DNA of 64,000 nt from a virus, in IMG/VR virus record IMGVR_UViG_3300021963_000060, positions 35,523-99,522 of that record; one strand, 5' to 3'. The notes below the pieces were generated by a model that was not told where the DNA came from, made no database searches, and worked only from the letters and a program-made list of their open reading frames with translations. Position numbers and translations under genes: made by a program. Positions 5,965 through 63,601 of the stretch are shown here, piece by piece (positions within the stretch are counted from its first letter, which is position 1; each line of letters begins with the position of its first letter).

Positions 5965-6612
5965 TTAAAGAGAATTTAAAAAATCATTAAATAATCTAAT
6001 CTTATTCTCTTCTAGTGCTTTTTGATCAATTAAAGTGTTGATTCTTTTTTGGAAATTAGAAACTTTTTGCTCAAGAATTCCATTATTCCAAACCCACTCA
6101 ACACCCTCCATAATTCCTTGAACAAATGCATCAGGCGCTGAAGGATCTGCGACAATATCAGCAGCTGTTGCTAACATAAAATCTTCACCTACTTCACTAT
6201 AACCTTCTTTTGTTTGTCTTAATGAACCAATTCCTCTAGAAGAAACACCAAGAGTTACTCCATCTTTAAGAAGTGACTCGGCAATTTTTCCCATGGGAGT
6301 TGAAAGAATTTGTGCCTTACCTACAAAGTTATTTCCATCACGATATAATTCTGTAATTTTATGAGAGACCCTATCTAAATTTACAGTAGGTCCATCTGGA
6401 TGGCCTAGTTCACCAAGAGCTCTACCCTTTTTAACATACTGCTCACTATATCTTTTAACTTCTCTTTCCATTACGGGCATACGGTAAACCCTTCCATTAC
6501 GATTTACCTGCTCAGCTTGAAGAAAAATTCCTTTAATAAAAAGATTTTTCTTACCATTAGTTTCTTCGGTAAGAACTTCTACTTTTTCGATTTCCTCTCT
6601 GATTAATTTCAT
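5965..6612 (-). CDS. g21: Prohead protease gp21
   Basis: NRNGRVY, ALGELGHP, LGVSSRGIGS, DIVADPSAPDA. True start is likely MKLIREE at 6612 rather than 6672. Confidence 0.95.
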   Translation of the reverse strand: MKLIREEIEKVEVLTEETNGKKNLFIKGIFLQAEQVNRNGRVYRMPVMEREVKRYSEQYVKKGRALGELGHPDGPTVNLDRVSHKITELYRDGNNFVGKAQILSTPMGKIAESLLKDGVTLGVSSRGIGSLRQTKEGYSEVGEDFMLATAADIVADPSAPDAFVQGIMEGVEWVWNNGILEQKVSNFQKRINTLIDQKALEENKIRLFNDFLNSL

Positions 6613-7195: not shown

Positions 7196-8452
7196 TTAAT
7201 AAATTTCTCTCCATCTCATAGAAACACCAACATTAGAAGGATCATTTCCTATATTGCTTACTCTCACTGAAAAAATTTCAGAATCTGTAGAATCAAAATT
7301 TTGAGACAAAAAGTTTTTCTTTGAAGTTGGCCCAGTTTGAACTTGTGCAGTTGTTGCTGATGGTTTAACTATATTTTGACTATCTCCTGCAGCATAACCT
7401 CCCATAAAGTCTTCAAAGTAAACTGTGCTAATACCAGTTGCTGTTTGGTTGTATTCAACTACAGACTCATCATTTTCAGAAATCCAAGTACCAGTAGTAT
7501 TAATTCCAACAGAACTTCTTAGTTTTACAACTTCATATTTTACATTTGATCCACTACTGAATACTGTAATATCTTCAAGTTTTACTGTTGCCCTATTTGG
7601 ATATCCTTTGAAAGAATTTTTTAATCTTATTGCAATAATAGGAACAGTAGTTCCAATACCAACAGATCTAAGTGGAGTTGTATGTGAAAATTCTCTTCCT
7701 GCTTCTGTATATCCACCCTCACTCATAACTGTGGAGCAAATTTGAACGAATGATCCACCGGCACCAACTTGTGTTCCACTGTTTCTAATTTCGCATCTTA
7801 CAGGAAGATTTGGATTAGACATATAGACAGTAGGCAAAACATTTGAATTATAAAATTCATGTGCGACAATATTGAGTCCATCTATACTAAAACCACAACG
7901 AACTCTACCAACTCCTAACCATTCAAAGTCTGTAAAAAATAGTTGAGATTTTGTGATATCTAAATTAAATCCAGATACACCATTCCCATCAAGTTTATCT
8001 TTGTTCCATTGAGATTGTGGAATTCTTCTTTCTGATACTCCTATTCCTGCAGTAACATAAGATCTAATTACAAAACTTAGAGTTCCATCTGGAGATTGTT
8101 CAAAGAAAATTCCGTCTCTATCGTCAAAATATCCAGTTCTTTTAGTAACATTCTGTTGCGCAGGACCAAAATTAAATGTCGAATAAATTAACTGAGATTT
8201 ACCGGGCATATAATGATGATATCTTTTAGTCTGATGGATACAATATCCATTAGTACTAATTCCAGATTGAAGTATAGCCGCTGCTTGATTTCTATCAAAA
8301 GAAACAGTAGCTCCAACACCAGATTTAACATCAATAAAATCAGGATCAATTGAATATAGATGTTTATAATCACCCAGTGTAAATGGGTCTGATGTTCTTA
8401 ATCTACCAAAAGCATCTATTTCTGGTTTAAATGGATCATATAAGTGAGACAT
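7196..8452 (-). CDS. Hypothetical (probable virion) protein
   Basis: 418-aa ORF with DAFGRLRTS, YMPGKSQ and EWLGVGRVRCGF motifs typical of a widespread phage beta-rich family. Confidence 0.65.
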   Translation of the reverse strand: MSHLYDPFKPEIDAFGRLRTSDPFTLGDYKHLYSIDPDFIDVKSGVGATVSFDRNQAAAILQSGISTNGYCIHQTKRYHHYMPGKSQLIYSTFNFGPAQQNVTKRTGYFDDRDGIFFEQSPDGTLSFVIRSYVTAGIGVSERRIPQSQWNKDKLDGNGVSGFNLDITKSQLFFTDFEWLGVGRVRCGFSIDGLNIVAHEFYNSNVLPTVYMSNPNLPVRCEIRNSGTQVGAGGSFVQICSTVMSEGGYTEAGREFSHTTPLRSVGIGTTVPIIAIRLKNSFKGYPNRATVKLEDITVFSSGSNVKYEVVKLRSSVGINTTGTWISENDESVVEYNQTATGISTVYFEDFMGGYAAGDSQNIVKPSATTAQVQTGPTSKKNFLSQNFDSTDSEIFSVRVSNIGNDPSNVGVSMRWREIY

Positions 8453-22702: not shown

Positions 22703-23403
22703 AAGTATTCCACCTCACTAAAGTAATGAGTATAAGGTTCATAATCACTCATACCTTTCTTTAATGGAATGGGATGATTATCGGCAATATAATCATCATC
22801 AGTATATTCCATAAATGATTTTGCCTTCACATTCTTATTGGTTCCAATCCAAAATTCTCTATCAAAACGATAATCGGTATTCAAATAGTTGTGGTCTAAT
22901 GTTTGTATATATGAAGCATTTGCCCACCAGAAGTTCCCACAGTAGCACCCAAGACCTTCATTACTCGTCATAGTCCCATCACCCCATAAGGTTGGTCCTA
23001 GAGGTTTGTAGGTCTGTCCTACACAGTCATAATCATTTAAATATTCAATACATTCTTTCCAGCGATCAATCACAAAGTATTCCATCATCAATCTCCAAGA
23101 ATTTGCAACGAGAGTTTCTTTACTAGTACCCTTCATATGAAAATATAAAATCTTATGTTCTGGATTTTCGTATGCAAAGTTTTTTAATGCTATAAGTGTT
23201 TCTGTTTCTTCTTTCCAATTTGTATTGTAAAAAACCCTTGCTTTTTCTGGTACATTGAATAATTCTTTATCACCATTAACACCAATATGGATATGATCGG
23301 CAGCGTCAACTAATCCAGAACAATATAGTCTATGAATTTGTTGCTGGTAGACAAACGCACTCATTCCAGATTGGAAAGTATGATAAAAAATTGCTATTTT
23401 CAT
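22699..23403 (-). CDS. Glycosyltransferase-like hypothetical protein
   Basis: LYFHMKG, WR..MEYF, GNFWWA motifs common in viral glycan loci. Confidence 0.5.
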   Translation of the reverse strand: MKIAIFYHTFQSGMSAFVYQQQIHRLYCSGLVDAADHIHIGVNGDKELFNVPEKARVFYNTNWKEETETLIALKNFAYENPEHKILYFHMKGTSKETLVANSWRLMMEYFVIDRWKECIEYLNDYDCVGQTYKPLGPTLWGDGTMTSNEGLGCYCGNFWWANASYIQTLDHNYLNTDYRFDREFWIGTNKNVKAKSFMEYTDDDYIADNHPIPLKKGMSDYEPYTHYFSEVEYL

Positions 23404-35100: not shown

Positions 35101-38100
35101 AGAAAGACTGTAAGTGTCTATATTAAGCAATTCTGAAGTTGGAGAATATGTTTCAGGTAAAGATGTTGTACTTGTGGAATTATATGGATTTGCAGTGAAA
35201 ATATCTGTTGGTTCATTATATGGACCATATCTATGATTAGCAACAGCAGTTCTGAAAACAATCTGAGTAGGAGTTACACCTATAGTTGGATTTTCAAAAG
35301 TAGAAGAATCCATCACAGTACCAATAACAGTTTCTCCAACTTCAAATGTACCAGAATTCATAGTGATTTCTAGTAATTTTGGAACAATATACTCATTAAC
35401 GTCTTCACCATCAAAGAAAGCATAAACTTGAGTAAATGGTTTAAATCTCTTTCCAGTAAACTCAACGTTTCTAGATCTCATATATGAAATGAAATCTGTT
35501 GCGATAATAGAGTCTCCTTGAGAGTAAGTATTTACTTGCTCCGTAAGTTGCATTCTAGTACCTTCTCTAGTTGAGGTACCGGTTTTAGTAGTTGTAGCAA
35601 CTGTGGTATATGATCCCCAACCACCATACCATCCCCAAGGATAACCATAGTAGTAGTAAGGATATCCATATCCCCACCAACCATAATAGTGACCCCAATA
35701 TCCATGATAATATGGGTAACCATAGTAACCATAGTAGTATGGATATCCATATCCATAGTATCCGTAGTAAGGCCATCCATAATAATATCCATTCCAATAT
35801 GAATTATATGTTGTGGTCTCTCCTGTCCAAGTAGTTTCCCAAGCACCCCATGTAATTGGACTATAACCAGTCTGTGGGTCCCAACCAGCAGCAACTAATT
35901 GTTGTTGTGTTTGTGTAAAGTTATCAATTTCTACATTTTTAGCATCTGCTCTAACTTGGTCTACCCAAGTATCAGAAGATGGATAAAGTTCAATAGTTCC
36001 ATTATACCTTGTAACAAGATATGGAGTTACGTTTTCAGTTCTTGTCGCAAATGGTTGTTGAACTTGTACAACGTGCTCATAATCAAGAGTAATCATTTGA
36101 CCAGTTCTCTTGATATTATTTCCGATTAAATCAGTAACATATCTTGGATCTGCATTAGGATCAACTGAAGTTCCAATTCCAACTAAAGAAGAAGATCCTA
36201 AAAGTAAATCAACTTCGGTAGTATATGGAGCAGGTCTTAATTCACCATTCTTAGAGTCAATACTATTTTTAACAATAGTTATTTTACTTTGAGATGTTGT
36301 AGTAGTAAAATCGTCAACAAAAAATCCAGATTTAAATCTATCTAGACCATTAGCATCCTTAATTTTTAAATTCTCTGTATTAGTCTCAAGTAAATTAAGA
36401 GTAGTATATGATTCTAGATTCTTAATTCTCTCCTCTAGTTTAGAGATATCTTTCATTTGATATCTCTTATGTGGAGTAATATTTACTGTTGCTCTAGAAG
36501 CATCGCAAAGATATGGTGGTAAAGTTACAGTTGCAACTTCTAGTGCGTTTTCAACCAGTTGAGGAGCTTGAGGAATCTCAGATGGTTCACCCTTTACTAA
36601 TTGGAAAGTACCATCCTTAGTTAAGAAAATTTTATCAATTCTGGGAAGATAATATGAATAACTTAATACAATTGACTCATCGGATGCTAGTACATTTTTA
36701 GCACTATTTCCAGAGGAAGTAAATGATCTAGCTAAAAATTCAAAAGGAGATCTGTTTGCAGTTTGAATATTATATGGAGAAACCCTTGGTCTAGCATCGA
36801 TAATATCTGTATTATTGATACTTTCTTTAGCAAAAGTAACAGTGCAATAATCAAATTGATTATATGAATCTGCAGTGGTTATATCTCCAGTATCCGAACT
36901 AGCAAATGATGCAGATTCGTAAATTATTCTTATCTTTTTGGTTGGTTCTTTAGCCTCAGGTTTTCTAATTAACTTAGCATAATCATATATTGTTTCTTTT
37001 TGTCCATAATCGAAGGAAAAGTCTGGAAGAATACTCTTATCACCTAACGTAGTGTCTCCAACTACTGCTTCAATTCCAGTTTCTCTGAATTTTACAATCT
37101 CACCTTGTTGAAGTACCCTATTATTCAAATAAGAAAATTCTGCTTTTAGATCATTAATTCTACCAACATAAATTGCTACAGCACCACTATCCCTTCCAAT
37201 AAATTCTTCACCTGGAATTAAATCATTAACTGTTCCTGTTGGTCCAGATAATGTCGATAGACTAACTGTTGGTAATAAAGGATCCTGAACACCAGAAGAT
37301 TCTAAAATACCATAAACTCTAGTAATTTCTGGAACCATTAGACAAATTTCTTCGTCCTGAACTCTAGTTCCATATGGGAAATTACCAACTTCTAATCCAT
37401 CATTAACCGTAGTGCTTCCTATACCAGAATAATCGTATCTGGATCTATTGAGCACTATAGAATTAATTCTATTTTTAATCTTTGTTTTAGATTTTATATT
37501 TACTTTTCTTAGGGTAGCAATTAATCTTGCTTGTGGATCATTAGATCCAAGGCCATAAATTGTTAGTTCTTTAGACGCATTTGTGAATACAAACTTATCT
37601 TGTGTTAGAACTTCAAATGCACCATTTGATCTTACTAAAATATATCTTTCCTCATCAAATGGTAAGAATGTTTCCCCACTATCTGCAGTAACAGTGCTAG
37701 ACTGACCACTTGTAATTGTAATGGGATATTCTTTTCTTATTGTTATAGACGAATCTGTTAGATCAACAGAGGAAATATAAGGTCTTGGTAGAGAAGTGAA
37801 TAAGGTATTATCTGGAGATGGTTGGAAGTTGGATGCTAAAATTGATAATTCATTTAGATCAGTTTCTGATGTAGGTAGTGAACCATCACAAACTCCAGAA
37901 ACACTAGTAATTCCAGCAACAGTTATAGTTTTCTCTTGTACTGTTAAAACTCTGTTAAGAGTTGGAAGATCTCCATTTGGTTTTCTATAACTGATTAAAC
38001 CACCTTCTTTTACTTTATTAATAAAAGTAAAATCATTATCTACAGTAAGGCTAACTGTACTGATACCACTAACATTCTTGGATATCTTAGAGAAACCTAC

Positions 38101-58542: not shown

Positions 58543-58813
58543 ATGGTCTATTTTTTCCCCTCAAAAATTTTTTTTGTTGACTTCAGAGTATATATGAGTT
58601 TTCTCTGAAATCCTATGGGGCGGTTTTTTGTACCGGGAAAAATTTTTTTAGAACACATTCACTCTCTCATTTTGTCACCTCTGTAGGTTAGGGTAGTTAT
58701 CGTTTTTTAAATCAGGGCGCGCCGCCATAACGATAACGTTATACCATAAACTGCTGATCACGAATGCTCCGCACGAATGGGGGGGGCAAGCGTGAGTGCC
58801 TGCCCCTGCCGTC

Positions 58814-58999
58814 TCACCCGATGCCGCGATAATCGGTGTGCAGTCCAGCCAACTCAGCGGCGCAGAATCCGTCGATTCCGTCCCGAGCATAAGCGGCGGA
58901 AGAATGAGAATTCAACTGCGGGCGACCCTTCACCACGTTGGTGCTGACCCATACGGTCTGGCGGGTGGCGAGGTCGGTTGCGATGTTGTAGAGCGCCAT
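58814..58999 (-). CDS. Early hypothetical protein
   Basis: 61-aa ORF directly behind the promoter cassette at 59011-59053. Confidence 0.65.
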   Translation of the reverse strand: MALYNIATDLATRQTVWVSTNVVKGRPQLNSHSSAAYARDGIDGFCAAELAGLHTDYRGIG

Positions 59000-59061
59000 G
59001 GGGAGGTGGTGTGAACTGGAGCCAGTATAGCAGATCGGGGGGCGATGCCCCCCTCAGCGGA

Positions 59062-59253
59062 TCAGTAGCGGATCGGCACGTAAGCGACGGTGACCTCTAC
59101 GTAGAGGGGCTCATCGGTGTTGTAGTCGTCCATCCGCTTACGAAGGCCGGCGGCGTCTGCCTCTGCCTTCTCAGCGGTGGCGTAGAGTCCGAACAGTTCG
59201 GGACGATCGTAGTAGTCGTTGCCCGTGGTGAAGATGGCGTATGCTTCGGTCAT
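59062..59253 (-). CDS. Early hypothetical protein
   Basis: 63-aa ORF behind a cassette. Confidence 0.7.
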   Translation of the reverse strand: MTEAYAIFTTGNDYYDRPELFGLYATAEKAEADAAGLRKRMDDYNTDEPLYVEVTVAYVPIRY

Positions 59254-59319
59254 CGGATCGGATCGGTTGACTTGGCCAGTATAGCAGATCAGGAGGAGGG
59301 GGGAGGTCCCCCCATCGGG

Positions 59320-59550
59320 TCAGTATCCCAGCCAGTTCAGGAATTCGCCAGTGTCGATCCGCTCGCCCTGCAGATGCCCGTAATCCTTACGGAACTGATA
59401 GAGGCAATCGGGACCGTGCATGTCGGCGGATTCCAGAGCGATGTGCCAGGCGATGGTGTCGTTGGCGGGGTGAGTACAATCCCAGAGGATGTCGCTGAAC
59501 GTGGTGCCAGGAGCGTAAACGTTCAGGCAATCGCGGAGGGCGGTGGTCAT
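59320..59550 (-). CDS. Early hypothetical protein
   Basis: 76-aa ORF ending FLNWLGY, behind a cassette. Confidence 0.7.
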   Translation of the reverse strand: MTTALRDCLNVYAPGTTFSDILWDCTHPANDTIAWHIALESADMHGPDCLYQFRKDYGHLQGERIDTGEFLNWLGY

Positions 59551-59596
59551 CGGATCGGATCGGTTGACTTGGCTAGTGTAGCAGATCGGGGACCGC

Positions 59597-59935
59597 CTAG
59601 GCGGCGGTGAACTGATCGTAGTATTCAGACTCCAGGTGATCCGCTTCCATCTCCCTGATGATGTCGCAGGTCAGACCCTCCAGGGATTGGCGGCAGTGAA
59701 CCAGCTCGTGGATCAGGGTCAGGATGTAGTCTTTGCGGGTCAGGTCGCGCTCAATGTCGATCAGGAATTCGTGGTCGGTTTCCTGCTGCTGCCATCCTAC
59801 CACACCCTCAGCAGTCAGGCGGCGGTGGTGAACCGTGACGGTAGCAGCGCCGAGCAGCGGTTCCTGATCGAGCATGAAGCGGTAGACCTGTTGGGCGAGG
59901 CGGGGGCGTTGCTTCTGTCCAGAGGTGAGCAGCAT
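59597..59935 (-). CDS. HExxH zinc-metallopeptidase-like protein
   Basis: LTLIHELVHCRQ plus downstream E.EA motif. Confidence 0.65.
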   Translation of the reverse strand: MLLTSGQKQRPRLAQQVYRFMLDQEPLLGAATVTVHHRRLTAEGVVGWQQQETDHEFLIDIERDLTRKDYILTLIHELVHCRQSLEGLTCDIIREMEADHLESEYYDQFTAA

Positions 59936-59976
59936 GGCGGTGGAGCGGTGGTGTGAACTGAAGCCAGTATAGCAGA

Positions 59977-60171
59977 TCAGTATGCTTCCCAGGCGGCAGC
60001 GGCAAGGTCAGCCGCCATCTTTTCCAGATTCTCCTCGGTGGTCCGGGCGCCGTACCATTCCATTGATTCGGGGTCCAGGCGGTCCAGGTCGCATCCGTAG
60101 GAATCCCAGGCGATCTCCTCAGCGAGGGCGAGGAGGCGATCGTAGAGGGCGAGGACTTGCTGTTCGGTCAT
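59977..60171 (-). CDS. Acidic early hypothetical protein
   Basis: 64-aa ORF behind a cassette. Confidence 0.7.
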   Translation of the reverse strand: MTEQQVLALYDRLLALAEEIAWDSYGCDLDRLDPESMEWYGARTTEENLEKMAADLAAAAWEAY

Positions 60172-60206
60172 TGTTCTATTGATTGAACTGAGATCAGTCT
60201 ACAGGG

Positions 60207-60431
60207 TCAGGCGACCTTCTGGGGTTTGATGCAGTGACGGTTTACCCACCGGCCCAGTGACTGATTGGAGTTCAGGGTAAGGGCGAGGGCAGCGCGGCGG
60301 GAGACCTTGAAAGTGTAGGGTTGGCGGGTGTAGTAGCGTTCGAAGCGTACCGCCACCTGACCAGTGATAGGGTTGACCGTGAGGGTTTCGATTGCGTCGC
60401 TGTTGTAGGTGGCGATGGGGAGTCCGATCAT
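60207..60431 (-). CDS. KTSC-like small protein
   Basis: SDAI...V.VRF...Y.F.V....L....SLGRWVN pattern. Confidence 0.5.
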   Translation of the reverse strand: MIGLPIATYNSDAIETLTVNPITGQVAVRFERYYTRQPYTFKVSRRAALALTLNSNQSLGRWVNRHCIKPQKVA

Positions 60432-60475
60432 GGGGTGCCTTGCGGTTGAGAGTATTGTAGCAGATCAGGGAGGGG

Positions 60476-60655
60476 TCAGAGCGCCCCGTTCTGATTCAGG
60501 ATGCCGTAGGAGACTTCGAACCCATTGGAGGTGGGGTAGATTCCCAGGTAAGCGCGACCGATGGAGACTGCAAGCATTTCATCTCCAGGGCGTGCTCGGC
60601 GGTCCAAACCAGCGTAGAAGATCGGTTCCAGGAATCGGGGAGTGCGGAGGATCAT
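60476..60655 (-). CDS. 59-aa early protein (not in ORF track)
   Basis: MILRTPRFLEPIFYAGLDRR...GILNQNGAL, behind the cassette at 60678. Confidence 0.65.
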   Translation of the reverse strand: MILRTPRFLEPIFYAGLDRRARPGDEMLAVSIGRAYLGIYPTSNGFEVSYGILNQNGAL

Positions 60656-60722
60656 CGGGGTCGTTTGAACTGAGAGAATTCTACAGGGTCAGGGGAGGAT
60701 CGATCCTCCCCCTATGGACGGT

Positions 60723-60884
60723 TCAGCGACCGTCTGTGTAGTCTCCGATGATGATGCCATTCTGGCGAACCTGAGCGTACCCGTATTCTTCAGAGAGGGA
60801 GAGGCACAGATCCCAGGCGCGATCCTCATCAGTGGTAGTGTTCTCCCAGGGAGCGGAGGGGCAGATCACGTCAAGGCGTTGCAT
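60723..60884 (-). CDS. 53-aa early protein (not in ORF track)
   Basis: MQRLDVICPSAPWENTTTDEDRAWDLCLSLSEEYGYAQVRQNGIIIGDYTDGR, behind the cassette at 60907. Confidence 0.7.
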   Translation of the reverse strand: MQRLDVICPSAPWENTTTDEDRAWDLCLSLSEEYGYAQVRQNGIIIGDYTDGR

Positions 60885-60955
60885 GGTGGTTGTCTGAACT
60901 GAGATCAGTATAAGGGGTCAGGAGGGGGATCCGTGACCCCCCGTGTACCAGTGCC

Positions 60956-61141
60956 TCAGGCGGCCATCAGAGCAGACTCCAGGCAGATCTCCCGCGTGTC
61001 CATCAGGGAGTAATCGTAACCCTCATTCTCCTGCAGCTGCCTCAGGTAAGCGTCAGCAGCAGAGAAGCAATCGAACAGGCGGAGCGACTTGAAATCCTCC
61101 CCCTCATAATCGAATCCACCGATCACAGCGTAGACTTTCAT
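60956..61141 (-). CDS. Early hypothetical protein
   Basis: 61-aa MKVYAVIGGFDYEGE ORF behind a cassette. Confidence 0.7.
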   Translation of the reverse strand: MKVYAVIGGFDYEGEDFKSLRLFDCFSAADAYLRQLQENEGYDYSLMDTREICLESALMAA

Positions 61142-61182
61142 GGGCGGGTCGTTTGAACTGAGATCAGTATAGGGTCAGGCGG

Positions 61183-61338
61183 TCACCAGCGGCCGTCCCA
61201 GTGGTCAGCCGCCCAACCGTCCCGCTGGGCTTGACGGGCATCATAATCTTCAGCCGTCATCAGGTCATCATGCTCCAGGTCCCACCGATCATCGTATTGG
61301 GCAGAAGCTTGAGAGCGGTAGACAGTAGAGCAGGTCAT
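61183..61338 (-). CDS. 51-aa Asp/Trp-rich protein (not in ORF track)
   Basis: MTCSTVYRSQASAQYDDRWDLEHDDLMTAEDYDARQAQRDGWAADHWDGRW. Confidence 0.55.
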   Translation of the reverse strand: MTCSTVYRSQASAQYDDRWDLEHDDLMTAEDYDARQAQRDGWAADHWDGRW

Positions 61339-61358
61339 CGGTTGTTGTTAGTTTGTGA

Positions 61359-61502
61359 TCAGAATTCGATGGTGTTCAGCGTTGGACCATCTGCAGGATC
61401 ATTGTTATCATCCATCCCAGCAGTGATAGTTTCAAGAATCTGGAGAATTTCATCGCCATTGGTGCCTTTCTGCAGGAGGGAGATTGCAAGACTCTTAGAC
61501 AT
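61359..61502 (-). CDS. 47-aa acidic protein (not in ORF track)
   Basis: MSKSLAISLLQKGTNGDEILQILETITAGMDDNNDPADGPTLNTIEF. Confidence 0.6.
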   Translation of the reverse strand: MSKSLAISLLQKGTNGDEILQILETITAGMDDNNDPADGPTLNTIEF

Positions 61503-61567
61503 TGTGAGATTAAAAAATTGAGTAGTGTGTGAGCAGTTTTAGGACTTACTCAGGTCCCGATTGTTAA

Positions 61568-61999
61568 TCAGTAATCAGAGAAGATGTGAACCTGACGGTA
61601 ACCAGCTTCGCAAGCGGTGTAATCGTAGCGGAGGTTAGTCTCCCAGGTTGCTTCCCAATCAACCACAACAAAATCGGGGACAATGTAACCCATTTCGCCA
61701 CAGTATTCTTCAGCAAAATCAGCGGTCGATTCGTAGGTTCCGCGATAACGCTCATCGCAGGAATCAATGTAGGACATGTCGCCCATTTCTTCAATCAGGG
61801 CATCAACTGCCTCATAACCGATTGCTTCACCACAGCGGACATACTCCTCATAATAGTTGCAGAAGTCATCCTCATTGTGCTCATCAATGAACTCAAGCAT
61901 GTCATCCAGAGCGTAGTTATCCTCCAGGCGCTCCTCAATGAATGCAACAGTCTGGGGATCGAGGGTTTCTTTGTAGTTGGCGGTGAGGGTGATCGACAT
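61568..61999 (-). CDS. ArdA-like antirestriction / DNA-mimic protein
   Basis: Very acidic 143 aa; YRGTYESTADFAEEY..VPDFVVVDWEATW...L.YDY resembles the ArdA C-terminal domain. Confidence 0.65.
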   Translation of the reverse strand: MSITLTANYKETLDPQTVAFIEERLEDNYALDDMLEFIDEHNEDDFCNYYEEYVRCGEAIGYEAVDALIEEMGDMSYIDSCDERYRGTYESTADFAEEYCGEMGYIVPDFVVVDWEATWETNLRYDYTACEAGYRQVHIFSDY

Positions 62000-62073
62000 G
62001 GTGGGTTGGGTTCGTTTGAACTGAGATCAGTATAAGGGGTCAGAGGGGGGCGTTGGTGCCCCCAGTGGACAGA

Positions 62074-62274
62074 TCAGCGAGTGGCACCCTTGATCATGCC
62101 TTCTACGAAAGCGGCACCGATCTCAGCCCAGAAGGAAGAATCGGTGACACAATCAGAGATCGCCTTAGTCCAATCCTGAGCGGTGGCCGTAGCGAGGATC
62201 TTACGTTGATCGGGGGTCAGGTCTGCGATCGTCTCATCCCAGGCGGTGAGCAGTTCGGTTTCCAGGTTGGCCAT
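62074..62274 (-). CDS. Early hypothetical protein
   Basis: Probable start MANLETE at 62274; the track start at 62322 lies inside the promoter cassette. Confidence 0.65.
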   Translation of the reverse strand: MANLETELLTAWDETIADLTPDQRKILATATAQDWTKAISDCVTDSSFWAEIGAAFVEGMIKGATR

Positions 62275-62341
62275 CAGTCGGTTGTCTGAACTGAGATCAG
62301 TATAAGGGTCGGGAGGGGGCATCGATGCCCCCAGTGGTCAC

Positions 62342-63094
62342 TCAGTAAACCGTCACAGTAGCGGCGGTCTGCTGCAGGAGTTGTGCTACCTTATCCTGTT
62401 GCAATTTAATTACAACTTGAGAGTTTTTGTTTGCTTTACTGTTGCCCAGGAATGCATTGATTCCGTTGTTGCTTGTGACGCGGATTCTCAAACCACAATC
62501 ATACACATTCCCCTCAGAATCGACAAAGTAAATCATGCGGGAAGATTTGCCGTTGCCCTTGAGAACGGGAGTGAAACCACGTTCGATGTAGGAAACTGCG
62601 GGATGATTGTTAGCGGAGAAGACGTAGATTTCCTGAGATTTCGTGTCGTTAATGACAACATCAAAACCAGAGTTGTTATCAATCAGTCCGATTTGCAGAA
62701 TGTTAATAATTTGATCTTTGCTAAGAGTATCCAACGCCAACTCACAAAGAGCGTTGAAACTGTCGCGGATCTTCAGCACGAACTCTTCATCAGAGCGCAG
62801 CGATTCGGGCATCTGACGCAACTCCCTCATGTTGGAAAGGAAGTGGTCAAAAGTATCACCCAGGACATCATTGTATGCGCTGGTGTTGAACCAATCGAAG
62901 CTGCCGTTGGTGATACCTTCCTTGCGCTTTATGCTGATTTTTTGAGCACCAGCAACGGCGTCTTCTTTGAGTTTAGTCCCACCACGCTTTACTACAGTTT
63001 CACTGTAGATCTTTTTCTCATTCAGGATACGAACAGTTGTATCCTCATTCTTTACGCCTCCGTGGTGAACGGAACCGTCTGTTTTGTAAGTCAT
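62342..63094 (-). CDS. Putative PD-(D/E)xK-fold endonuclease
   Basis: G..NE, GGTKLKED...ISIK pattern resembles type II restriction-enzyme-like active sites. Confidence 0.45.
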   Translation of the reverse strand: MTYKTDGSVHHGGVKNEDTTVRILNEKKIYSETVVKRGGTKLKEDAVAGAQKISIKRKEGITNGSFDWFNTSAYNDVLGDTFDHFLSNMRELRQMPESLRSDEEFVLKIRDSFNALCELALDTLSKDQIINILQIGLIDNNSGFDVVINDTKSQEIYVFSANNHPAVSYIERGFTPVLKGNGKSSRMIYFVDSEGNVYDCGLRIRVTSNNGINAFLGNSKANKNSQVVIKLQQDKVAQLLQQTAATVTVY

Positions 63095-63168
63095 TTGATC
63101 GACAAATTAAAGTGAACGTTTGGAGTCTTTAGGGCGCTGCCGTTCCCTGTGCCCTTAATTATACAGGA

Positions 63169-63312
63169 TCAACGACCCTCCCCGCAGTATTCAGGGGCCG
63201 CTTTGCAAAGTGTCTCAGCACGGCGCTCCTGGTACGAATCCACGGTAGCCATCGCAGCGGTAGCGACGTTGAAACCCAGGATCAGGGTCAGGGCAGTAAA
63301 GGCGAGGCGCAT
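63169..63312 (-). CDS. 47-aa signal-peptide/membrane protein (not in ORF track)
   Basis: MRLAFTALTLILGFNVATAAMATVDSYQERRAETLCKAAPEYCGEGR, behind the cassette at 63334. Confidence 0.6.
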   Translation of the reverse strand: MRLAFTALTLILGFNVATAAMATVDSYQERRAETLCKAAPEYCGEGR

Positions 63313-63388
63313 GGGGTTGTTTGAACTGTGGCCAGTATAGGGGTTAAAAGGGGATTCACGAACCCCCCTTGTGCCACTTGTCAGTCTG

Positions 63389-63601
63389 TCACGCAGGTTC
63401 CGTCACCTCTGTAGGATACACAGGTTCAGTATCTTCTAGCAGTTCAGGGTAGGTTTCACTAACCTCAGTGATTAGTTCATCCTCAGTATAATCATTGAAG
63501 CATTGAACTAGCATGTCGTAAGCATACTGTTCAAGAGTTTTCATGTCCATACTATCCAGGATTTGCTGGGCGTAGGCATCAATCAGGTCTGCTTTGTTCA
63601 T
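63389..63601 (-). CDS. Acidic early hypothetical protein
   Basis: Probable start MNKADLIDAYA at 63601. Confidence 0.7.
   Translation of the reverse strand: MNKADLIDAYAQQILDSMDMKTLEQYAYDMLVQCFNDYTEDELITEVSETYPELLEDTEPVYPTEVTEPA

Follow-up and report, generated by a model that had tools for sequence, protein, structure and literature searches.

The closest described systems to the gene array reported here are the promoter early stem-loops (PeSLs) of T4-type phages, for which the reference set consists of the phage pairs RB49/phi1, T4/PST, and KVP40/nt-1 (Arbiol et al. 2010, PMC2839356; Comeau et al. 2014, PMC4122927). PeSLs are regulatory repeats between which homologous exchange takes place by the general recombination of the phage, and their motifs differ from one published pair to the next (PMC2839356; PMC4122927). 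Recombination at PeSLs was shown experimentally in RB49/phi1 (PMC2839356). Neither of these two papers treats cyanophages, and in the cyanophage S-PM2 a search for PeSLs covered only the "ORFanage" at 5-17 kb, where few were found (Puxty et al. 2015, PMC4503421). Here, we describe an island of small genes, most of them headed by the same composite regulatory unit, in the IMG/VR virus record IMGVR_UViG_3300021963_000060. The sequence analysed, hereafter the window, is the final 64 kb (positions 35,523 to 99,522) of this 99.5-kb record, whose completeness is estimated at 46%. A literature search found no description of such an array in cyanophages, the S-PM2 genome paper (Mann et al. 2005) lying outside that search.

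The closest cultured relatives of the source genome are the T4-like Synechococcus myoviruses S-PM2, S-SCSM1, and Bellamy (Kyanoviridae) and, on sequence, it is a T4-like, Kyanoviridae-like cyanomyovirus. Between 58.8 and 63.4 kb, the minus strand of the window carries 15 small open reading frames (ORFs) of 47-250 aa, 12 of which are headed by the unit; those at 62342-63094, 61359-61502, and 61183-61338 have none. With a GC content of 52-54%, this block stands out from the rest of the window (ca. 31%). We consider it probable that it represents a hyperplastic early-gene island, in which single-gene cassettes are joined by a composite PeSL-like regulatory unit and exchanged by homologous recombination.

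Read in gene sense, the unit begins behind the stop codon of the previous ORF, often with a box of the type (A/G)GTGGCACA(A/C) or CCACT, and continues, in 8 of 12 units, with a 6-10 bp hairpin rich in G and C. Next comes a spacer of mostly pyrimidines, closed by CTGACCC(C)T or GATCTGC, which leads to TATACT, TAGAAT, TACAAT, TAGACT, or TACACT, and the unit is completed by six bases (often GATCTC), AGTTCA(A/C/G)AC or AGTCAACC, and a C/A-rich stretch up to the ATG. Twelve ORFs of the window have a TAnnnT box 27-36 nt 5' of their ATG. The pattern TANANTN6AGTYMA occurs 11 times in the 64 kb, for 1.86 expected and with none of 100 shuffles reaching 11, and nine of these sites fall inside the island, all on the minus strand. 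A repeat search covered the units with direct-repeat families of 38-57 nt, and the units numbered 13 and 14 below are 93% identical over 46 nt. Scans for canonical -35/-10 promoters and for a hairpin followed by a T-run missed the units, since these have no -35 box and no T-run, and neither scan exceeded the shuffles; the C/A-rich leaders show no Shine-Dalgarno sequence, and an Rfam scan of 56-64 kb returned chance-level matches only.

An earlier note, made from the letters of the window, had described about 12 minus-strand units with hairpins that differ in sequence yet pair, without -35 box or U tract and with leaders lacking a Shine-Dalgarno sequence, in a PeSL-like array of single-gene cassettes built on a recurring regulatory unit. 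This description was borne out in each of these respects: 12 units were found, and the three hairpins that it quoted are exact (GGGGGGCATCGCCCCCC at 59037-59053, GGGGGAGGATCGATCCTCCCCT at 60691-60712, and GGGGGCATCGATGCCCCC at 62315-62332). The composition contrast, which it did not mention, was measured in addition.

Evidence for the exchange of cassettes came from related loci. The exact 18-mer TATACTGATCTCAGTTCA was found in at least 119 IMG/VR contigs, and in the loci fetched with it (ca. 120) the units are arrayed in a single direction, up to 15 per array. When every ORF starting 20-45 nt past a unit was taken as a cassette, 408 cassette ORFs with a median length of 63 aa were obtained, which cluster into 75 families. 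The arrays are differing permutations and subsets of these families, as illustrated by the orders 52-31-7-1-21-13-74-5-10-19 in the window, 1-0-6-7-3-29-5-33-16-5-5-4-34 in locus L038, and 7-2-3-8-29-1-5-41-10 in locus L113. One family was found with 10 different direct predecessors, and reciprocal orders occur (e.g. 5 before 10 and 10 before 5). Every cassette of the window has its best match in a different locus, with 74-95% nucleotide identity. Loci L075 and L038 are 99.2% identical over 2.8 kb from the CTGACCC/-10 core of one unit onwards and unrelated immediately upstream of it, while L031 and L107 differ by the replacement of a cassette with two units as borders.

Similar joints were seen in contigs from four metagenomes of four studies, which were compared with the window; no RNA run was listed as containing the stretch. 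In three of these metagenomes, contigs join position 60683, the first base of a TAGAAT box, to position 60943, just past the next hairpin; the 53-aa cassette is gone, and a different hairpin is found in its place. Other contigs show joints from 59256 to 60447 and from 60883 to 62006, both within leaders. One contig joins 58743 to 63362 and skips the whole array, with an anchor of only 23 nt, and joints that go back along the sequence are ambiguous, as the units are repeats. The earlier note had proposed that the array was shuffled by recombination, and had named as evidence to the contrary a gene order that is fixed among relatives with no breakpoints at the repeats. Content and order were found to vary between relatives, with breakpoints in the repeats.

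Searches for a tyrosine recombinase (PF00589, with matching positive controls) and for a serine recombinase (PF00239) gave no match in complete S-PM2 or in the present record. Together with the promoter carried by each cassette and the position of the crossovers in promoter and leader homology, this favours the PeSL picture over that of an integron. The 30-57 nt of near-identical unit sequence would provide homology for the phage's own general recombination, which would delete, insert, duplicate, and swap cassettes while sparing genes and expression signals.

The promoter part of the unit was characterized across the loci. Among 354 unique units, the ATG lies 27-35 nt past the first base of TAnAnT in about 95%. 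The collection pattern imposed TAnAnT; re-anchoring on AGTTCA..ATG alone yielded 467 sites, in which positions -12 to -7 read T (0.82), A (0.82), T (0.57), A (0.84), C/A, and T (0.80), with an extra TGAC at -20 to -17. The spacing of TAnAnT is that of a standard -10 box to a predicted start site with A at +1, with implied leaders of 15-24 nt. In Synechococcus elongatus, genome-wide mapping described promoters that have a -10 box, favour A at +1, and show no consensus at -35; the absence of a -35 consensus was also given for Prochlorococcus, and cyanobacteria were described as devoid of Rho and terminating transcription at hairpins (PMC3219970). As cyanobacterial promoters normally have no -35 consensus, its absence from the units corresponds to the host norm, not to a new class of promoters. 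TAnAnT would thus be a -10 box read by the host RNA polymerase in unmodified form, carrying its primary sigma factor, and transcription would start at the A of AGTTCA to give a short leader without Shine-Dalgarno sequence. Reading TGGCAC ... TTGC as a sigma-54 promoter was rejected, the spacing in an S-PM2 example being N9 and not N5. Cyanobacteria are not known to have RpoN.

A G/C stem of at least 5 bp was found upstream in 233 of the 354 units and in 7 of 354 coding controls, with mean minimum free energies of -15.6 and -4.3 kcal/mol, respectively; in the window, 8 of the 12 units have a G/C hairpin. The 189 hairpins compared include 105 distinct 5' arms, indicating that pairing is retained and not sequence. 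Their loops span 3-10 nt, and 2 to 47 nt (mode 7-13 nt) separate them from the -10 box. Where the hairpin is missing, the preceding ORF ends on the TGA within CTGACCC. About 87 of the 189 units have the conserved box (A/G)GTGGCACA(A/C) immediately ahead of the hairpin, and the box sometimes lies within the loop (e.g. window positions 63371-63377 and 60943-60955). The absence of the hairpin from a third of the units and its variable spacing are more in keeping with an element at the 3' end of the preceding cassette than with a part of the promoter. The variable hairpin and the TGGCACA box would then form the 3' end of the upstream cassette, stopping transcription or stabilising the mRNA 3' end, and the role of the hairpin may be termination, mRNA stabilisation, or that of a processing site.

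Several other explanations were weighed. A wider one, which we regard as possible if doubtful, would make the island a self-contained cyanophage regulon and gene-exchange platform. A common pool of GC-rich cassettes would circulate among T4-like myoviruses with very different backbones, with at least one protein family shared with T7-like podoviruses. The 5' signature of the unit (CTGACCC, -10 box, AGUUCAAAC) and its 3' signature (TGGCACA plus hairpin) would mark membership and be read by a dedicated factor of phage or host, serving immediate-early expression, shut-off, or the capture of cassettes, instead of acting as plain promoter and terminator.

It is unlikely that the units are transcription punctuation only, i.e. 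a strong, conserved promoter and a hairpin serving a class of early genes, with cassettes turning over by illegitimate recombination and selection and the repeats playing no causal part. The promoter geometry and the hairpins would be equally well explained, Syn1 keeps the slot with much more degenerate units, and breakpoints are bound to appear in the sole conserved non-coding sequence when unrelated ORFs are compared. Yet the switch between L075 and L038 from unrelated to 99.2% identical sequence occurs exactly at the -10 core, and clean deletions or swaps of one cassette, with both borders in units, recur in several independent studies. Adjacent units moreover share up to 46 nt at 93% identity, which is ample for T4-type recombination, and such recombination is experimentally documented for the PeSLs of RB49/phi1 (PMC2839356).

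An integron-like or site-specific mechanism, as proposed in the earlier note, appears very unlikely. Hairpins folded in single-stranded DNA would be cut and joined by a dedicated recombinase or a structure-specific nuclease, possibly the product of the 250-aa ORF of the island. Neither S-PM2 nor the present record contains a tyrosine or serine recombinase match, each cassette has its own promoter when those of integrons are promoterless, and the crossovers observed lie in the -10/leader core and not in the hairpin, which a third of the units lack altogether. What this mechanism would account for is the combination of variable hairpin sequence and conserved pairing, as in attC sites, the TGGCACA box that adjoins about 87 of 189 hairpins, and the possible R.HinP1I-like nuclease inside the island; the 250-aa ORF, however, is not headed by a unit, has a GC content below that of the cassettes, and matched nothing by sequence in Pfam, PHROG, or the PDB.

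At odds with the data is the idea of a "-35-less, structure-dependent promoter class", for which the earlier note had invoked the hairpin promoters of phage N4. The hairpin would be recognised instead of a -35 box, as in N4 early promoters, and indeed most hairpin 3' ends lie 7-13 nt 5' of the -10 box, over the place of the missing -35 consensus. The analogy with N4 found no support and is highly improbable: the -10 box stands in ordinary register, the spacing varies from 2 to 47 nt, and 4 of the 12 window units, like about a third of the 354, have no hairpin, those of the window nonetheless having -10 box and leader. Furthermore, cyanobacterial promoters normally do without a -35 consensus (PMC3219970), the hairpins are located directly behind stop codons, as 3'-end structures are, and no match to a single-subunit RNA polymerase (PF00940) was obtained in S-PM2 or the present record, although the control genomes were equally silent. 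Finally, a small mobile repeat, such as a miniature inverted-repeat transposable element or a repetitive extragenic palindrome, spread into the intergenic spaces of the island, is scarcely credible: near-identical copies are many and confined to one region, but their orientation is strictly constant and their distance to the ATG fixed, no terminal inverted repeats, target duplications, or transposase were seen, and the unit is essentially absent from cellular genomes (1 match in 185,579 prokaryote species).

The reading of the island as PeSL-like cassettes exchanged by homologous recombination has to be weighed against several points. Breakpoints in the sole conserved intergenic sequence are partly expected from the detection of homology blocks, and gathering the loci by one exact 18-mer biases the unit statistics to that variant. 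The start site, the early timing, and termination at the hairpin are predictions from the nucleotide sequence. A T-run follows the hairpin in only 19 of 258 cases, so that they do not qualify as canonical intrinsic terminators and may work in another way. Stem mismatches are G-T in 40 cases and A-C in 26 (p 0.11), which is no significant sign of RNA-level selection, and hairpin identity when the neighbours differ (0.69 vs 0.64) gives no clear assignment to the upstream ORF or to the downstream promoter. Other early genes of S-PM2 do not have this unit, and a factor of its own may be needed instead of the plain host polymerase. Most cassettes match no Pfam family and several belong to PHROGs of unknown function.

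The island and its borders are composed of the following features, all coordinates being those of the window.

63389-63601, minus strand: backbone gene, DUF7326 / phrog_1352, upstream border of the slot (Pfam PF24012, E 1.5e-16).
58779-63375, minus strand: GC-rich cassette island, 15 small ORFs, 12 with the repeated unit (from GC, GC at third codon positions (GC3), and unit and ORF mapping).
63322-63375, minus strand: unit 1, with GTGGCAC box, hairpin 63347-63370, -10 box TATACT 63334-63339, and leader AGTTCAAAC.
63169-63312, minus strand: cassette ORF of 47 aa with a hydrophobic N-terminus, phrog_1792.
62342-63094, minus strand: ORF of 250 aa without unit, GC 45%, with its own TATAAT at 63158-63163; an R.HinP1I-like nuclease is a lead only.
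62287-62340, minus strand: unit 3, with CCACT box, hairpin 62315-62332, -10 box TATACT 62299-62304, GATCTC, and AGTTCAGAC (direct-repeat family D2).
62074-62274, minus strand: cassette ORF of 66 aa, acidic.
62017-62070, minus strand: unit 4, with CCACT box, hairpin 62046-62063, -10 box TATACT 62029-62034, and AGTTCAAAC.
61568-61999, minus strand: cassette ORF of 143 aa, anti-restriction family, looks distantly ArdA-like, net charge -30.
61183-61502, minus strand: two small ORFs without unit, of 47 aa (61359-61502) and 51 aa (61183-61338), with a hairpin and T-run ahead at about 61540-61560.
61154-61180, minus strand: unit 7, without intergenic hairpin, with CTGACCC, -10 box TATACT 61166-61171, and AGTTCAAAC.
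60956-61141, minus strand: cassette ORF of 61 aa, phrog_17343, weak DUF7336 match, with homologues in Syn1, S-RIM44, and ACG-2014h.
60895-60948, minus strand: unit 8, with GGCAC box, hairpin 60924-60942, -10 box TATACT 60907-60912, and AGTTCAGAC.
60723-60884, minus strand: cassette ORF of 53 aa, of the commonest family (35 copies in the loci), missing from variant contigs of three other studies (joint 60683 to 60943 in X3, X4, and X7).
60666-60719, minus strand: unit 9, with hairpin 60691-60712, -10 box TAGAAT 60678-60683, and AGTTCAAAC.
60476-60655, minus strand: cassette ORF of 59 aa.
60432-60470, minus strand: unit 10, hairpin-less and with a variant leader; stop codon of the ORF before it within CTGACCC; GATCTGC, -10 box TACAAT 60454-60459.
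60207-60431, minus strand: cassette ORF of 74 aa, basic, phrog_7365, with homologues in the early left end of T7-like cyanopodoviruses.
60172-60212, minus strand: unit 11, without hairpin, the stop codon lying within CTGACCC; -10 box TAGACT 60196-60201 and AGTTCAATC.
59977-60171, minus strand: cassette ORF of 64 aa, acidic.
59936-59980, minus strand: unit 12, without intergenic hairpin, with GATCTGC, -10 box TATACT 59966-59971, and AGTTCACAC (direct-repeat family D1).
59597-59935, minus strand: cassette ORF of 112 aa with a HELVH motif, weakly DUF6782 metallopeptidase-like, phrog_10499.
59551-59608, minus strand: unit 13, with a short hairpin 59592-59608 over the stop codon, GATCTGC, -10 box TACACT 59575-59580, and AGTCAACC leader (direct-repeat family D4).
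59320-59550, minus strand: cassette ORF of 76 aa.
59254-59313, minus strand: unit 14, with hairpin 59298-59313, GATCTGC, -10 box TATACT 59278-59283, and AGTCAACC leader (direct-repeat family D4).
59062-59253, minus strand: cassette ORF of 63 aa, with a homologue in the S-PM2 island.
59000-59053, minus strand: unit 15, with hairpin 59037-59053, GATCTGC, -10 box TATACT 59024-59029, and AGTTCACAC (direct-repeat family D1).
58814-58999, minus strand: last cassette ORF, 61 aa.
58779-58813, minus strand: terminal G/C hairpin after the last cassette (from sequence).
58620-58790, no strand assigned: conserved non-coding backbone stretch with ATAACGTTATCGTTAT, downstream border of the slot (blastn to unannotated DNA of S-SM2, P-TIM68, Sf-FS3, and DSL-LC02).

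The slot occupied by the array is conserved. In S-PM2 (NC_006820, locus L001), a homologous block of 50-60% GC in a genome of about 38% GC was found at 21.1-25.0 kb, with units of the matching type (TATAATGACTGAAGTTCAAAC, TAGACTTCTCTCAGTTCAAC), hairpins, and GGCAC boxes. It is bordered by the DUF7326 gene upstream and the ATAACGTTATCGTTAT non-coding stretch downstream, with gp25/gp6 a few kb further on, a synteny also found in Syn1. The array is preceded by the same DUF7326 gene in 57 loci and directly followed by the conserved non-coding stretch in 15 (window counted). The unit motif is restricted to the island both in complete S-PM2 and in the present record, and is therefore a signature of the island, not a general early promoter of the phage. 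Cassette homologues are present in Syn1, S-RIM44, and ACG-2014h; in Syn1, the slot is taken by an array that is more degenerate. The island is poorly annotated in the public S-PM2 record: the unit-headed ORFs lie on one strand and the annotated S-PM2p067 and p070 on the other, and cassettes such as that at 23021-23206, a homologue of the 74-aa cassette of the window, were left unannotated.

The downstream stretch contains a palindrome, ATAACGTTAT, and CTAACCTACA(G/A)AG (window 58620-58790, L001 at about 7960-8120, and L130 at about 6040-6150). It is conserved in S-PM2, Syn1, S-SM2, P-TIM68, Sf-FS3, and DSL-LC02, with nothing annotated there; the S-PM2 and Syn1 copies contain ATAAATA, a motif resembling late promoters. 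The stretch probably serves the genes that follow it as regulatory DNA of the backbone.

A host origin of the unit was rejected, a 21-mer version of the 18-mer having 1 match among 185,579 prokaryote species. This match (L129, JBIKNV010000533.1) is a 2.6-kb contig of a Pirellulales metagenome-assembled genome from a lake, and is probably a mis-binned cyanophage fragment.

The products of the cassettes are small and often acidic, 56% of 312 distinct proteins being strongly acidic. The ORF at 61568-61999 belongs to phrog_36653, "anti-restriction protein" (E 9.6e-41). Its match to Pfam ArdA (E 0.0087, 17.1 bits) is below the cut-off of 27, and the AlphaFold2 model (pLDDT 83) has the ArdA structure 2w82 as its top Foldseek hit, albeit a weak one (E 1.6, TM 0.42), and as its only VIA match (Z 4.3, root-mean-square deviation 4.6 over 110 aligned residues). 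PDB sequence searches with this protein, which has a net charge of -30 over 143 aa, and with its profile found nothing. Three weak pointers agree, and the protein looks distantly ArdA-like, although membership of the ArdA family is not established.

T7-like cyanopodoviruses carry homologues of the 74-aa cassette ahead of gp0.7, in their leftmost 1-3 kb, where early genes read by the host polymerase would lie on the T7 model. The presence of a homologue in the podovirus left end means that at least one early protein family is common to different phage families. In S-CBP3 (L131), this homologue is found at 1043-1315, and a tiny acidic ORF at 2409-2560 resembles, by eye, the weakly DUF7336-like cassettes. 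A podovirus origin of the unit was rejected, as the S-CBP3 early region shares the protein family and not the unit.

Among the other ORFs, the 250-aa ORF at 62342-63094 gave a protein atlas feature score of 0.93 and a predicted-structure TM of 0.75 to virus clusters in which 14-27% of the members carry PF11463 (R.HinP1I), whereas no Pfam, PHROG, or PDB sequence match was obtained. The place in S-SCSM1 homologous to the 112-aa cassette (59597-59935) is annotated "transcriptional regulator of DNA damage repair", and the 76-aa cassette (59320-59550) had no tblastn match in cultured phages. Ahead of the unit-less 47-aa ORF, the minus strand carries an AT-richer signal at 61510-61560, with the hairpin GGGACCTGAGTAAGTCC followed by an A/T-rich leader; this junction and the lower GC of the ORF suggest a cassette of different origin.

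The cassettes would together encode a set of small immediate-early proteins, mostly acidic, that serve host takeover or counter-defence. As far as the earlier note's proposal of host-takeover and anti-defence genes is concerned, such an early role is plausible, with one cassette ArdA-like and one with early cyanopodovirus homologues; for most cassettes it goes beyond the matches obtained.

The island differs from its surroundings in codon usage as well, the median GC3 being 0.71 in unit-headed cassettes and 0.20 in backbone genes. Across the loci, array GC (0.51-0.61, median 0.58) does not correlate with backbone GC (0.32-0.44; Spearman -0.22, p 0.22). Why the block stays about 20 GC points above genomes of 32%-44% GC is a puzzle, for which host-like codons for early translation, a shared foreign gene pool, and recombination-driven GC bias are candidate causes; host-like GC and codons would suit translation before phage tRNAs are made. 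Several palindromes are depleted in the island (58814-63390; observed/expected): CTAG 2/17, CCGG 3/24.5, GGCC 9/24.5, GTAC 6/17, and AGCT 5/17. An excess of GATC (54 for 17.4 expected by base composition, 3.1x) was explained by trinucleotide content (52 expected), and GATC was rejected as an essential part of the unit, most S-PM2 units being without it.

T4-like cyanophages are among the most abundant marine viruses, and their acquisition of host-takeover and counter-defence genes is poorly understood. The array represents a widespread hot-spot that can be recognised by its GC-rich block, its fixed slot, and its 18-nt signature, and that is present in the cultured model S-PM2. It offers hundreds of small, probably immediate-early proteins (75 families in ca. 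120 loci) as candidates for anti-defence or host shut-off, and extends the PeSL idea of regulatory repeats as seams for modular exchange to hosts with -10-only promoters. The earlier note had presented it as an undescribed system; as a variant of PeSLs it is already known in kind, while for cyanophages it appears to be undescribed.

Compared with known systems, the array differs from N4-type hairpin promoters, its hairpin having no fixed position (2-47 nt) and being missing in 4 of 12 units. With integron arrays (IntI, attI, attC, Pc), it shares a fixed platform, a variable one-directional row of small cassettes, imperfect palindromes, and shuffled content. It differs from them by the lack of a detected integrase, by a promoter for each cassette in place of one Pc, by crossovers in promoter and leader, and by a third of junctions without palindrome. 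The class I early region of T7-like cyanopodoviruses (S-CBP3, S-CBP4, S-TIP37, and S-RIP2) has phrog_7365 and tiny acidic ORFs before gp0.7 in common with the array, but that of S-CBP3 is without the repeated unit. Ordinary cyanobacterial sigma-70-type promoters (Vijayan et al. 2011, PMC3219970) are alike in TAnnnT at -12 to -7, A at +1, and no -35 consensus; the units conserve far more around the box (CTGACCC at -21 to -15, AGTTCAAAC at +1 to +9), and their exact motif is essentially absent from cellular genomes.

In contrast to published PeSLs, the array has no -35 hexamer and no AT-rich upstream element, which fits a host whose promoters have no -35 consensus (PMC3219970), the upstream region being C-rich or a hairpin. 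CTGACCC or GATCTGC stands just 5' of the -10 box, the transcribed start AGTTCA(A/C)AC is conserved, and the hairpins, mostly without T-runs, are nearer to the -10 box and often accompanied by a TGGCACA box. The array is also compact: it forms a single island whose slot is fixed and whose GC content exceeds that of the genome by about 20 points, with a unit that other early genes do not use. The likeness to PeSLs is otherwise close: in both, a hyperplastic region of a T4-type myovirus carries composites of a stem-loop and a host-type early promoter before small ORFan genes, and insertions, deletions, and replacements have their borders in these repeats; crossovers fall in the stretch from the -10 box to the ATG, and there is no dedicated recombinase.

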